DNA of 64,000 nt from Octopus vulgaris (GCA_951406725.2 OX597822.1:37200001-37264000), one strand, 5' to 3'. Shown: positions 50,101 to 56,100, counted from the stretch's first letter. Program-made: numbers and translations. The notes: generated from the letters alone by a model not told the origin.

Positions 50101-53100
50101 ATAGTAAGAGCTTCCATAGTAGTGAGGATCATGGTGTTTAGAATAGTAAGAGCTTCCATAGTGGTGAGGATCATGGTGTTTAGAATAGTAAGAGCTTCCA
50201 TAGTGGTGAGTGTCATAGTGTTTAGAAGAGTAAGAGCTTCCATAGTGGTGATAGTTATGGTGTTTAGAAGAGTAAGAGCTTCCATAGTGGTGAGGGTCAT
50301 GGGGTTTAGAAGTGTAAAAGCTTCCATAGTGGTGATGAGGGGGTTGGAGTTTCAATGAGTAACAGTCATCATAGGGGTAATGTTGGTGGGGTTTTGAAGA
50401 ATATGAGTTTTTATCAGCAGATCTCTTATGTCTTCCAAAAGGAGGCCAGTAGGATTTGGGGTTGTAAGATCGACTAAAATGGTCATATTCAGGAATGTAG
50501 TAGGGATTCCAATAATAAGGGAATTCATAGTGTTGCTGATATCGGTGAGATCTGAAATTGGAAGGGTGTCCTTTACTATAAAAGCGATAGGGACCATGAC
50601 GATAAGATTTAGGCTTATGATAGGGATAAGATTTAGGCTTATGATAGGGATAAGATTTAGGCTTATGATAGGGATAAGATTTAGGCTTATGATAGGGATA
50701 AGATTTAGGCTTATGATAGGGATAAGATTTAGGCTTATGATGGGGATAATATTTAGGCTTATGATGGGGATAAGATTTAGGCTTATGATGGTGAAAAGAT
50801 TTAAAGCCATGATAACGATGATGTTTAAAGACGTGATGATGGTGAGATTCAGCATGAAAATGATGTTTACCAAGAAAATGGTGTGCCAAGGCATGAGGAA
50901 GAAGAGGTTTAGAAACAGATCTTTTATAACGGGGTAAGTAATCATCATCATCATCATCATAAAAATTGGTTGCACCATCATAATATTTGCTTTGTTTAGA
51001 ATAGTAAGGGTTTGAAAAGGGGTGAGGGGGATAACTTTTAGAAGGGTAAACATTTTTGTAGTTATAAGGATAATAAGGTTTTGGGTAGGATTTAATATAT
51101 TTGTGTGATTTGGGACCGGAAGGATATCCCTTATCATAATAGTTATAAGATTTAGAACCATAACGGTGATAATATTTAGAGCCTTGATAATCATATTTAG
51201 TATGATAAGGATGCTTGTCAGGATAGTTATGAGATTTAGGAGGAGTGGGTTTAGTGGGTTTAGTGGGTTTAGTGGGTTTAGAAACAGATCTTTTATAACG
51301 GGGTAAGTAATCATCATCATTGTAAGTTTGGGTTACATCATCATGATATTTGCTTGATTTAAAATGATAAGGGTCTGAAAAGGTGTGAAAGGAGTTTGTT
51401 TTAGAAGAGTAAAGATCATAGGGATAATGATGTCCCAGAGAGGGTTCTTGAGTATCTGTATAGTAGTGTGGCAAGTTTAAGAAGGTACGAGGGGTGTGAG
51501 TGTGACTATGAGATGTTTGACTGTGTGATGTTTGACTGTGTGATGTTTGACTGTGTGATGTGTGACTGTGTGATGTGTGACTGTTTGATGTGTGACTGTG
51601 CGATGTGTGACTGTGCGATGTGTGACTGTGGGAAGTGTGACTATGCAATGTGTGCAGCAGCCTACTGTGTTTGTGCACCAAGTGCGAATCGGCATGCAAT
51701 AAATGTGCATGCTTGTGTAATGCATGGCTTTGAGTGTGGCTCAACCCTCCATTAGGATGTAACAAGTGTGAGTGAGCATGAGCTAAATGTAAGTGAGCAT
51801 GAGTTAAGTGTGAGTCAGCATGAGCTAAGTGCTCAAGTTTGTGTGACAAGTGACTTTGAGTGTGAAGTAACCCTCCATGAAGATGGGCCAAGTGGGAGTG
51901 AGAGTGCAATAAATGTGCATGCTTGTGTAATGTATGACTTTGAGTGTGGCTCAACCCTCTATAAGGATATAACAAGTGTGAGTTAGCATGAGCTAAATGT
52001 GAGTGAGCATGAGTTAAGTGTGAGTCAGCATGAGCTAAGTGCTCAAGTTTGTGTGACAAGTGACTTTGAGTGTGAAGTAACCCTCCGTGAAGATGAGCCA
52101 AGTGGGAGTGGGAGTGCAATAAACGTGCATGCTTGTCTAATGCATGGCTTTGAGTGTGGATCAACCCTTCATATGGGTGCAACAAGTGTGAGTGAGCATG
52201 AGTTAAGTGTGAGTGAGCATGAGCTAAGTGCTCGAGTTTGTGTGACAAGTGACTTTGAGTGTGAAGTAACCCTCCATGAAGATGAGCCAAGTGGGAGTGA
52301 GAGTGCAATAAATGTGCATGCTTGTGTAATGCATGGCTTTGAGTGTGGCTCAACCCTCCATTAGGATGTAACAAGTGTGAGTGAGCATGAGCTAAATGTG
52401 AGTGAGCATGAGCTAAATGTGAGTCAGCATGAGCTAAGTGCTCAAGTTTGTGTGACAAGTGACTTTGAGTGTGAAGCAACCCTCCGTGAAGATGGGCCAA
52501 GTGGGAGTGAGAGTGCAATAAATGTGCATGCTTGTGTAATGTATGACTTTGAGTGTGGCTCAACCCTCTATAAGGATATAACAAGTGTGAGTTAGCATGA
52601 GCTAAATGTGAGTGAGCATGAGTTAAGTGTGAGTCAGCATGAGCTAAGTGCTCAAGTTTGTGTGACAAGTGACTTTGAGTGTGAAGTAACCCTCCGTGAA
52701 GATGGGCCAAGTGGGAGTGAGAGTGCAATAAATGTGCATGCTTGTGTAATGTATGACTTTGAGTGTGGCTCAACCCTCTATAAGGATATAACAAGTGTGA
52801 GTTAGCATGAGCTAAATGTGAGTGAGCATGAGTTAAGTGTGAGTCAGCATGAGCTAAGTGCTCAAGTTTGTGTGACAAGTGACTTTGAGTGTGAAGTAAC
52901 CCTCCGTGAAGATGGGCCAAGTGGGAGTGAGAGTGCAATAAACGTGCATGCTTGTGTAATGCATGGCTTTGAGTGTGGATCAACCCTTCATATGGGTGCA
53001 ACAAGTGTGAGTGAGCATGAGCTATGTGCTCATGCTTGTGTGACAAATGACTCTGAGTGTGAAGTGAACCTCCATGCTGGTGAGCCAAGTGTGAGTGAGT

Positions 53101-56100
53101 ATGCAATAAATGTGCATGCTTGTGTAATGCATGGCTTTGTGTGTGACTCAATCCTCCAAAAGGATGCAGTAAGTGTGAACGAACATGAGATACCTGAGTG
53201 CGAGCATGAGACACCTGAGTGTGACTGTGTGATGTTAATTTTTTTCCATATGGCCCAAGATGGTAATTATAAAGGGTTTTGCTGGGGTAATAATGGGGAT
53301 AGAGCTGGTTGTAAATGTGTGGGGCAAGATAGTGGTCACCATGGTGGTGGTGGTGGTGATGATGGTGGTGAAGATTTTGATTCAGATGAACGTTGACGTT
53401 ATGGTTGTTTTTCTGACTGACATGAATTGATTGTTGATGAACTGGATAATGAAGTGGATAACGAAGTGGATAATGAGGAGGATAATGAAGAAGATAACGA
53501 CCATTTAGGTAGTAATTCGGGAAGCCATAATATGAATTGTAGTAACCACTACATTTATCCAGGGGACAGTGACTGCTATAAACTATAGGAAAGCATATTG
53601 ATTTGTTCCTGGAAATAAACATAAAATTAAAACAATTGTTAAAAATCTATAAAACAATGCATATATATATTATTTTTTTTTAACATTATAAAGACGTAGC
53701 ATCAATTTTCTAGCACTCCTTGACCCAGATCCATGCCAGATAATCTGTTTTGTTTGATTAACAGAAGGCATGTGATAATAATTCTTGGTAAATTCCTGGC
53801 AGACAGGCACCACATAATCAATAACTTTTCACTACTAAGACTTCACAACACACCTTTGTTTATTTGCTATGATTGTGTTATAAAATTGGAAACATTTTTC
53901 CAATCCTTTTACTATAATATCAAGGTGCCAAAGTCGAAATAATCTAACGCTTTATGCTAATACCTAAAACAAAATCTAAGGCCATTTTCTAATGCTTAAA
54001 ACAGAATTCAATGCCAGTGCCAGGCCATCTCTTGAAATGTAACTGTAAAAGGTCGATAGTAATTGTTTCTCTTTTCTTGCTAGAATACTGTCTCCTCTGG
54101 TGAAGGTACATGTTTTAATGGTTAGGATATTCAGCTCATAGTCATAAGGCTGTGAGTTCAATTCCTGGCATCATGTTATGTCCTTGAGCAAGACACTTCA
54201 TTTCCAATTATCCCAGTTCAGTCAGCTGGCAAAAAAATGTAATTCAAAGGGTCAGCCATGTTACATTCTGTGTCACACTGAATCTCCCTGAAAACTATGT
54301 TAAGTGTATCCATGTCTGTGGAGTACTCAGAGAACTATGTTAAGGGTATGTGTGTCTGTGGAGTACTCAACCACTTGCATGTTAATTTCACAGGCAGAAC
54401 CCTTATTGTCATAATCAATGGAGTACCAGTTTGTTTGTTTTTTATTATATCCACTGCAATGGATGTAATGATATCCCTATCAATTTGCTCTTTGAAGAAA
54501 GAGGGTCTTTAGAGTATTAGCATATGGTGCTGAATTTATTTTTAAACATCTGCATTTTCATATTATTGCAATCATGTATAAGAAGAGTGTTTCTACCTTC
54601 ATAATGAGTTACTAATAAATAAATAAATGTGTGCTGTGAAGACTTGGTTGTGAAAAAGTTGTTAATAAGATTTATGGATTCTAACATAAGATTGTCCAAA
54701 TTAAAAAGAGATGCTGGATCATCACTTGCAGAAAAATTGATGCAGTGCGAATATATAAAGGTGTTAAAACATACAGAATATACATAACAGTGTTTAAAAA
54801 TGATATAAAATAAAGTAAAATGAAGTGTAAAGATGGAAAAACAAATGAGTTTGGTGTTGGTATAATTTGAACTTTGAACATAGAGTGATGTATACTAAAT
54901 GTTATTGAGTATTTCCTGTGATGCTGCTGTTTCTCTGTGGAAGCCATGTTTGGGAGTTAAGTGTCTTTGACAAGAAAGAGATGAGCTCTGGTATGAATTC
55001 ATAGTAATTTTGGTCTGGTTAATTAACATACCTACCAGAGAGAGCCATACACCTCACTTTGTATGCTAAGCAGCAGCAGCAGGAGCAGTGTTATCAGAAA
55101 CAAAGTCACTTTGCTAATCATCATCATATTATCACCATTTCCACCAACACAATCAACTTCACAATCTTTAACACCATTGTCATCATCCTAATACTACTAC
55201 CATTAATAATCATCTTCAGTTTCTCCATCAGCATCAGCGTCGTTGTTGTTGTCATCATCATTGTCATTGTCATCAGAAATATTAACTGGATAAACTTAAT
55301 CACATCCATGCTACAAGAGGAAATACAGAAAGAATTGAACACTTACCTCAAAGGGCCAGAACAGCAATCAATATCTGTGGAATACATGGAACAATAGTAA
55401 AAACATATTTCACAAATTTGAAAAAATGTTTGTTCAATTTCAGATTAAATTCCCTGTTGTTTGTTTGTTACTTTTTAATGTGAATATTTCATCTGCCATT
55501 ATATCATTAGACTTGTGATTAGATTTGATCTATTGTGGCGTCATTTCATTTTTCATTTTAATAATGACATCATGTACAGGAGGAACATTGCATTCTTAGT
55601 CATGATACACCATGGAAATAGGATAACTGATCCTATGATTCTGAGGATTTGAGACAGTAATGTTCAGGGTTTAATACTCATCTAATTATATTTGGTCCGT
55701 ATTAGTTTTATTTGAGCCATCAAAATCTCATTTGATCTGTAGCAGGAATATTTAGCAATTGAACTCAAATCATTTTATCCAATGCAAAAAAAGCAACTCA
55801 AGAATATGATTGTGATTTACTAAAATATTACCAACATCATAAAAAAAATTGGACCATTCAAGACTTCGTATGGAACTGGATGTAACAGTAATTTCCTTTT
55901 TGGCACACTTTTTCTGAGCAAGACCACCACTATAAATTCAGCACATTTTAGCCACTTCTGATAGACAGTGGATGGCAAACATCAGACTGGACACAGAAGA
56001 TGGCAGTCAGTAGACAGTGGGACAAACAGCAGACGGCCAGAGTACTGTGACAGTACAAAAACAATGGACAGGTGGTGACAGCAACACACAATAATCAGCT

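Follow-up and report, generated by a model that had tools for sequence, protein, structure and literature searches.

What is a run of more than seventy histidine-leucine heptads doing in an octopus genome? The question is raised by a 64,000-nucleotide stretch of Octopus vulgaris DNA (GCA_951406725.2, OX597822.1:37200001-37264000; hereafter the window, in whose coordinates positions are given), where an earlier note, made from the sequence alone, had seen a candidate metal- or pH-switched material domain. The heptads are real, and their main feature was overlooked: the block sits in exon 6 of a 13-exon gene on the minus strand that codes for an animal heme peroxidase of 1841 amino acids (aa), whose domain is split by an insert rich in His and Tyr. 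The architecture is unusual within a known family. On balance it is probable that the product is a secreted precursor of egg cement or egg coat made in the oviducal gland, cut by a convertase, which fuses a cross-linking enzyme with a pH-switched His/Tyr substrate.

Each of the 13 exons (Table 1) has an AG acceptor and a GT donor where one is required, and spliced in phase they contain no internal stop. The frame of exon 6 opens with NKSICFPI and closes with CINLVRS, the motifs bordering one short loop of heme peroxidases. Pfam PF03098 matches the upstream exons at positions 1-34 and 40-89 and the downstream part at 273-444 (exons 3, 4 and 10). A profile of 62 single-domain relatives pairs aa 39-155 with its positions 3-123 and aa 1387-1836 with 133-568; since these matches are colinear and do not overlap, there is one peroxidase domain, interrupted once. 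The PF03098 domain is complete and in order. The hydrophobic leader encoded by the first exons is a probable signal peptide. A stand-alone His-rich protein was rejected as an explanation because exon 6 lacks a Met and its splice sites fit the peroxidase. At the other end of the gene (window 36071-36090), the model finishes with QVKKLI and the O. bimaculoides protein with EYY; a candidate donor follows the last Trp-Lys-Gln codons, which may indicate one more small exon.

The loop that received the insert is otherwise short. In a set of 331 proteins, pattern matching located both flanking motifs, CxP[IVLMF] and CxxFxRS, in 294 domains belonging to 219 of them. They are at most 30 residues apart in 291 of the 294 domains, 768 apart in the O. 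bimaculoides orthologue and 1241 apart here; the remaining outlier, P0178 with 369, is probably due to a mis-picked upstream motif. The distance is 16-19 in all four O. vulgaris paralogues in which both motifs were found, among 18 peroxidase-related 10-kb stretches that include some paralogues only in part. The 1221-aa insert is made of His (22%), Ser (13.5%), Leu (11.5%), Tyr (10%), and Pro and Lys (6.6% each) as leading residues. Its first part runs from a Tyr/Pro/His lead with a His10 run through the heptad array and about ten SHSHT pentads to an RYKR; its second part continues with a Tyr/Lys/Pro segment, another RYKR, eight (Y/H)HKPKSYP octamers, an RHKR and about ten YGSS 14-mers.

Table 1. 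Exons and repeat elements of the split peroxidase gene, in transcript order, with window coordinates
Feature	Position	Strand	Remark
Exon 1: start Met and hydrophobic probable signal peptide	61529..61568	-	
Exon 2: end of probable signal peptide	60845..60869	-	phase-compatible; model only
Exon 3: start of peroxidase domain, PF03098 positions 1-34; 5' part of forward-primer site	58936..59093	-	
Exon 4: distal Gln/His/Asp (QAISHD), Asp94-equivalent is Ser; reverse-primer site; single copy	56953..57132	-	
Exon 5: DCC cysteines	55347..55374	-	
Exon 6, 3785 bp: CFPI start, CINLVRS end, whole insert	49824..53608	-	junctions as in XP_052826901.1
Insert, 1221 aa, model aa 164-1384	49888..53550	-	
73 His-Leu heptads, 511 aa, units of 56/70/70/70/63/70/70/35 aa	51649..53181	-	
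About 10 SHSHT pentads, almost unchanged in O. bimaculoides	51494..51654	-	
RYKR, predicted convertase site 1, aa 914	51289..51300	-	conserved in XP_052826901.1; cleavage predicted
RYKR, predicted convertase site 2, aa 1037	50920..50931	-	
8 (Y/H)HKPKSYP octamers; HHGPKYYP-type in O. bimaculoides	50601..50803	-	
RHKR, predicted convertase site 3, aa 1203; RYKR in XP_052826901.1	50422..50433	-	
About 10 Tyr/Ser/His 14-mers (YGSS type)	49894..50335	-	
Exon 7: calcium-binding loop TSFLDGS	46587..46676	-	
Exon 8	46015..46122	-	
Exon 9: distal Arg kept, Glu242-equivalent is Ser (GDSRDSSN)	43039..43284	-	
Exon 10: proximal His kept (FRFSH); Asn421-equivalent is Phe (FIQKGRDHG)	40370..40886	-	
Exon 11	38452..38609	-	
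Exon 12	36729..36828	-	
Exon 13 and stop codon; true end uncertain	36071..36161	-	last residues differ from O. bimaculoides

The same plan is found in O. bimaculoides. In its orthologue XP_052826901.1 (P0078, 1294 aa) the exons join at the same points, 748 aa are inserted at the identical site, and three RYKR motifs match the RxKR sites of O. vulgaris in position; since this protein is itself a predicted model, its support for the splicing is that of an independent prediction. Identity amounts to 82/89 in the N-half of the domain, 429/452 in the C-half and, over the later part of the insert, 354 of 511 aligned positions; three more cysteines, at the base of the insert, are conserved as well. 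XP_052826901.1 has only about five heptads, at the 3' edge, with Leu4 and His6 in register and no complete higher-order unit. Since a collapsed assembly should leave one unit, a real absence of the array is the more likely case, and with so few heptads in O. bimaculoides the array is not a conserved domain. Outside Octopus, a search of representatives with the peroxidase (P0001) found no relative above 45% identity among its best 150, and so yielded no orthologue from squid, cuttlefish or elsewhere; a length-limited homologue search with exon 6 gave none among 6016 candidates.

Within O. vulgaris, the nearest paralogue appears to be P0211, a conventional 'chorion peroxidase-like' protein encoded 1.1 Mb away on the same chromosome (C9, 38.36-38.38 Mb), whose compared region is identical to O. 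vulgaris CAI9727684.1. Like the split peroxidase, it has Ser in place of Asp94 and, downstream of the proximal His, a short additional segment containing FKKH; it differs in its 19-aa loop, which lacks a His-rich insert, and in keeping the Glu and the Asn. In a quick tree (65 rows, 147 columns, no Aedes or Drosophila reference) the two group together with a Shimodaira-Hasegawa-like approximate likelihood-ratio (SH-aLRT) value of 86, a weak support, and the branch of the split peroxidase is long (1.66). The P0211 locus (C9:38357000-38379499; L007, L008) is a candidate sister gene and a candidate active partner. Elsewhere in the genome, at least five divergent peroxidase-like genes are clustered at C20 12.05-12.32 Mb (L017-L021); in L018-L021 the segment expected to hold FRFGH has no His, and these may be pseudo-peroxidases. 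Among 330 proteins fetched, the only other His-rich peroxidase is P0264, with a His/Lys/Arg-rich N-terminal extension (residues 1-100), a short His-rich tail and a normal loop.

The heptad array reads in unbroken register through 73 consecutive heptads, from RSHLLHP (53181) to HSRLLHT (51649), where about 74 heptads and 520 aa had been announced; three degenerate heptads upstream bring the total to 76. It lies in an open frame of 1276 codons (49816..53646, minus strand). The pattern described by the earlier note, with His usual at positions 3 and 6 and Leu at 4, holds position by position (His6 in 69/73, Leu4 in 63/73, His3 in 55/73), but the strict form xxHLxHx is present in only 43 heptads. 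Position 1 is His in 34, Gln in 15 and Leu, Tyr or Phe in 12; position 7 is Ala, Thr or Lys in 52. The 511 residues include 158 His, 108 Leu, 62 Ser, 52 Ala and 25 Gly. Leu4 and His6 occur together in 60 heptads, when 2000 shuffles of the same residues give 7.7 on average and never more than 13. The 1533 bases have neither stop nor frameshift in the coding frame; the other five frames have 27, 22, 72, 78 and 5 stops.

Higher-order units of 56, 63 and 70 aa were correctly recognised: they follow each other as 56, 70, 70, 70, 63, 70 and 70 aa and a 35-aa stub, in agreement with DNA periods of 168, 189, 210 and 399 bp. Their junctions read PFGG-PYEG-PYRG-PYRG-PNGG-PYEG-PYRG-PNGG, which includes the order given before. 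The block duplication deduced from that order is supported by the small DNA distances between units 2 and 6 (3/147 bases) and among units 3, 4 and 7 (1-2), within an overall range of 1-10 of 147 bases. That unit lengths differ by whole heptads, as the earlier note saw, is no proof of a fold, since slippage or expansion of a 21-bp unit gives such differences automatically. The array is single-locus in the O. vulgaris genome (G000), with 6 strong matches of 13, all within the exon 6 frame, and neither the array nor the YGSS repeats were found a second time in that genome. Open frames are also present in other 21-bp arrays of the genome (L025 2189-3637, L026 2444-3224); several frames of these minisatellites mimic His/Leu heptads (LSSLLHF, HSAGWLV) and they are probably non-coding.

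AlphaFold2, run in single-sequence mode, predicts one helix per unit, interrupted at the P-x-x-G junctions, with a mean predicted local distance difference test (pLDDT) score of 72.5 and a predicted template-modelling (pTM) score of 0.30 for 210 aa of the block, and 61.0 and 0.22 for 532 aa. Single-sequence models tend to over-call helix in repeats. With such pTM values no packing of the heptad helices is predicted, and Foldseek found no match for the model of the block. In the ESM Atlas, the heptads had no hit at 0.9 and the O. bimaculoides insert no usable one. The interpretation put forward earlier is partly supported: helices are predicted at moderate confidence, and the models show no solenoid; a beta-solenoid was rejected for lack of any predicted strand. 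On the helix, Leu4 and position 5 would face away from His3 and His6 (moments at 346 versus 176 degrees). The hydrophobic-moment test is not significant: the heptad layout is matched by 51% of the 720 column orders for hydrophobic residues and by 47% for His. The computed charge of the block falls from +153 at pH 5 to +84 at pH 6 and +7 at pH 8.1. Among 35 distinct heptad DNAs, the ratio of non-synonymous to synonymous differences (pN/pS) is lowest at His6 (0.03), followed by Leu4 (0.26), position 1 (0.32) and His3 (0.42), and reaches 0.9-1.3 at positions 2, 5 and 7; these values are rough, because pS is saturated and the pairs lack independence. The mostly silent codon variation at His6, Leu4, position 1 and His3 is a rough sign of selection on the protein. 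A non-coding minisatellite is ruled out by the in-frame exon, the orthologue and the codon pattern.

Expression can be approached through a transcript of the O. maya oviducal gland, named chorion peroxidase and followed by a quantitative PCR (qPCR) product of 116 bp (PMC8976471). The primers in Table 5 of that paper fit the spliced O. vulgaris model with 3/20 mismatches each and a product of exactly 116 bp. The forward primer spans the exon 3/4 junction and has 5 mismatches on genomic DNA only, and 20 other fetched loci do no better than 6 (forward) or 4 (reverse) mismatches. With this fit, the distance, the lack of a better locus and the single-copy exon 4, the O. maya transcript is very likely the orthologue of the split peroxidase, and the exon 3/4 junction is then backed by a cDNA product from O. 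maya. The transcript peaks at fertilisation, being up in fertilised females (reverse-transcription qPCR, P = 0.0161) and down at senescence, and the top stage-dependent genes include dual oxidase 2 and neuroendocrine convertase 1 (PMC8976471). The gland makes and polymerises the cement of the egg strings (PMC8976471, citing Froesch and Marthy 1975). The reported BLAST match to Aedes chorion peroxidase has an E value of 3.4e-9 (PMC8976471), as weak as expected if the O. maya contig stops within the domain and contains its short N-half alone. By way of the O. maya primers and the timing of that transcript, the split peroxidase is indirectly placed in the egg-laying tract at the time when egg coats form. 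A 'chorion peroxidase-like' peptide of the ink proteome (PMC10142993) was considered and rejected, the reported peptide being absent from the model.

In the domain itself the distal Gln, His and Arg and the Ca-binding Asp with its loop are kept (QAISHD, GDSR, TSFLDGS), as is the proximal His, FRFSH aligning to FRFGH of lactoperoxidase; the roles of these residues are defined in PMC3533774. Exon 4 alone gave only chance hits against the PDB. The cystine Cys257-Cys281 of eosinophil peroxidase (EPO) spans the loop of the insertion (PMC10679500) and corresponds by spacing to Cys138/139-Cys1390 here, through which the halves would stay linked after cleavage.

The favoured egg-cement or egg-coat precursor builds on what the sequences show: the anatomy of the gene, the site of the insertion, RxKR sites that are conserved, a plan common to O. 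bimaculoides, and the O. maya primer fit. The precursor would be secreted, its two peroxidase halves folding round the looped-out insert and joined by the loop-spanning cystine. A convertase would cut the three RxKR sites into pieces of about 102, 15, 21 and 74 kDa (computed as 102.5, 14.8, 20.8 and 74.3 kDa, with isoelectric points, pI, of 9.3-10.1). The heptad array would stay on the N-half of the enzyme and the YGSS repeats on its C-half, and two basic Tyr/Lys/His peptides would be freed. The material would be soluble in acidic granules and condense at seawater pH as His loses its charge, with Zn or Cu perhaps bridging His pairs, and peroxide-driven cross-linking of Tyr would then join its own Tyr/His-rich parts. 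The heptad array is likely a recent 21-bp repeat expansion that added His-rich helical bulk to an older plan, and not the core of the mechanism. The most complete version is a self-curing cement from a single gene: an active peroxidase that loops a His/Tyr polyprotein of kilo-residue size out of its fold, cleavage by a convertase to an enzyme with two tethered His-rich arms and to two free basic peptides, condensation at seawater pH with heptad helices bundling through Leu and Zn or Cu held by His, self-cross-linking, and an arm length that evolves between species by 21-bp expansion. We consider this version conceivable and rather doubtful.

Several observations weigh against the precursor hypothesis. 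The equivalents of the heme-ester residues Asp94 and Glu242 are both Ser, that of Asn421, the partner of the proximal His, is Phe, and the Arg after QR is Lys. Such residues are rare in the motifs of the relatives fetched (Ser at Asp94 in 17/316, Ser at Glu242 in 6/450, Phe at Asn421 in 4/394, Lys in 1/394, by rough regular-expression counts that include degenerate domains), and all four replacements are common to O. bimaculoides. With them the split peroxidase may be weak or dead, and the prospects of peroxidase activity look evenly balanced. O. bimaculoides lacks the long heptad array. The splicing of exon 6 relies on two gene predictions and not on reads: the exon joint was not found in four sequencing runs over 53225-57150, where X1 and X2 gave repeats only, X5 one short contig in exon 6, and X10, possibly not independent of the assembly, introns, as DNA would; 12 of 24 sequencing-run rows hold part of exon 6, several being only guessed to be RNA, and they were counted as no evidence. 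The primers cover exons 3-4 in another species, and the insert is outside their reach. The O. maya data describe one tissue, so gland specificity goes beyond them, and the study pooled gland parts and, by its own limitations section, did not reach three sequenced biological replicates per condition (PMC8976471). Secretion, folding of the halves, cleavage, condensation and cross-linking are all inferred.

Some of these points would suit a pseudo-enzyme scaffold, in which a dead or nearly dead peroxidase fold frames the His/Tyr material for folding, secretion or anchoring and another peroxidase, for instance the paralogue 1.1 Mb away, does the cross-linking. The Ser/Ser/Phe replacements point that way, as the Asn-His pair controls heme-iron reactivity (PMC3533774), together with the long branch and the normal loop, Glu and Asn of P0211. 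However, the distal His and Arg, which serve to cleave peroxide, are retained together with the Gln, the Ca loop and the proximal His, all of them identical in O. bimaculoides; the C-half is highly conserved between the two species, and P0211 likewise has Ser at Asp94; we regard the scaffold as unlikely. For the heptads alone, a recent and largely neutral expansion of a 21-bp minisatellite in an already disordered loop, devoid of fold or metal function of its own, would account for the few O. bimaculoides heptads without the complete unit that a collapsed assembly would leave, for the near identity of the units, for the other open-frame arrays of the genome and for an amphipathic order that half of the column permutations match. 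It sits poorly with the low pN/pS at His6, Leu4, position 1 and His3, with the register kept by the O. bimaculoides remnants and with 1533 bases free of stop and frameshift, and appears quite unlikely.

Two further functions can be set against the precursor hypothesis. Clavanins are His-rich antimicrobial peptides with a pH- and Zn-dependent helix, and a halide-type peroxidase releasing cationic His-rich helical peptides could guard brooded eggs. The four predicted products are all basic, the heptads are predicted to be helical, and a squid halide peroxidase acts against microbes (PMC6386654). On the other side, the heptad array has no internal cleavage sites that would yield short peptides, and the Tyr-rich tandem repeats resemble a cross-linking substrate. 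Halide oxidation by mammalian peroxidases goes with covalent heme links, which are absent here, and this protective role is very improbable. A beak- or radula-hardening protein like the squid histidine-rich beak proteins (HBPs) would explain the high His and Tyr and the pH-dependent charge, HBPs being known to coacervate on His deprotonation (PMC11931252); with no GHGxY, GHG or GAGFA motif, 25 Gly in 511 residues of the heptad block against 20-35% in HBPs, and the sole expression evidence pointing to the oviducal gland, it is hardly credible.

Other elements of the window lie outside the coding exons. Retrotransposon-like fragments were found at 31132-32313 (minus strand, with RVT_1 and PHD-like hits), 33297-33845 (plus) and, within intron 6, 48674-49108 (plus). 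Nested tandem arrays of 62/63, 102, 172 and 345 bp of a GC-rich interspersed element occupy 29410-30710, and the element recurs at 49270-49488. Pieces resembling a Tc1/mariner transposase lie at 27661-28010 (minus), with an SPDCNPLDY motif that we take to be of this type. About 12 kb before the window start, L031 7341-8456 (plus) encodes a 372-aa array of C2H2 zinc fingers.

The gene is a named candidate for an octopus egg-cement protein, with predicted fragment sizes and peptides; no identification of such proteins was found in the literature searched. An enzyme that carries a structural substrate within its own catalytic domain would be an unusual route to a one-component underwater adhesive, and no description of such a peroxidase/His-rich fusion was found in that mostly open literature. 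Searches there with the RefSeq and UniRef identifiers, 'His-rich peroxidase' and 'histidine-rich peroxidase' retrieved no paper, subscription journals being mostly outside their range. The 'chorion peroxidase' marker published for O. maya likely corresponds to the split protein and not to an ordinary enzyme, and the peroxidase fold appears to tolerate 750-1220 additional residues at this loop.

Compared with known systems, the protein resembles lactoperoxidase, myeloperoxidase (MPO) and EPO in its whole domain in order, its distal Gln, His and Arg, its Ca loop and its proximal His, and lactoperoxidase is the best solved match (E 8e-60 for XP_052826901.1). Near the insertion region, MPO and EPO likewise undergo a cut that leaves two chains (PMC10679500). 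Unlike in these enzymes, a repeat insert of 1221 aa (748 in O. bimaculoides) with three RxKR sites is present, and unlike in the mammalian active site neither the two heme-ester residues nor the proximal Asn are kept. The integrin-binding RGD of peroxinectins is absent from the model and from XP_052826901.1, in a count limited to RGD that left KGD aside. Insect chorion peroxidases (Aedes PERC, Drosophila Pxd) share expression in the egg-laying tract and a proposed role in cross-linking the egg coat, and the proposed mode of action would be like chorion hardening and the cross-linking of resilin by peroxidase. In insects the chorion proteins are encoded apart from the enzyme, whereas the split peroxidase contains substrate-like repeats within itself; it was from the insect protein that the O. 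maya transcript took its name (PMC8976471). Squid DgHBP-1 to -3 also have His-rich tandem repeats with Tyr and lose charge with pH. None of the other HBP traits described in PMC11931252 (15-18 kDa, Gly-rich, disordered, GHGxY pentapeptides) applies to the split peroxidase: HBPs are small stand-alone proteins, and the heptads belong to an insert in an 1841-aa protein. The distinction from GHGxY beak repeats drawn by the earlier note is borne out, GHGxY and GAGFA pentapeptides numbering 0 each. Whelk egg-capsule coiled-coil proteins likewise bring heptad helices, predicted here, to a molluscan egg material, and the His domains of mussel preCols, which set on the shift from acidic granule to seawater (PMC9999432), follow a similar pH logic. 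A canonical coiled coil is hydrophobic at both a and d; the heptads are not, having one constant Leu position and a would-be core partner that is His or Gln in 49/73. Neither a collagen nor an intermediate-filament plan is present here, and no enzyme is fused in the whelk and preCol systems. By its domain, the split protein is best classified as a member of the animal heme peroxidase family, distinct from HBPs and from canonical coiled coils.

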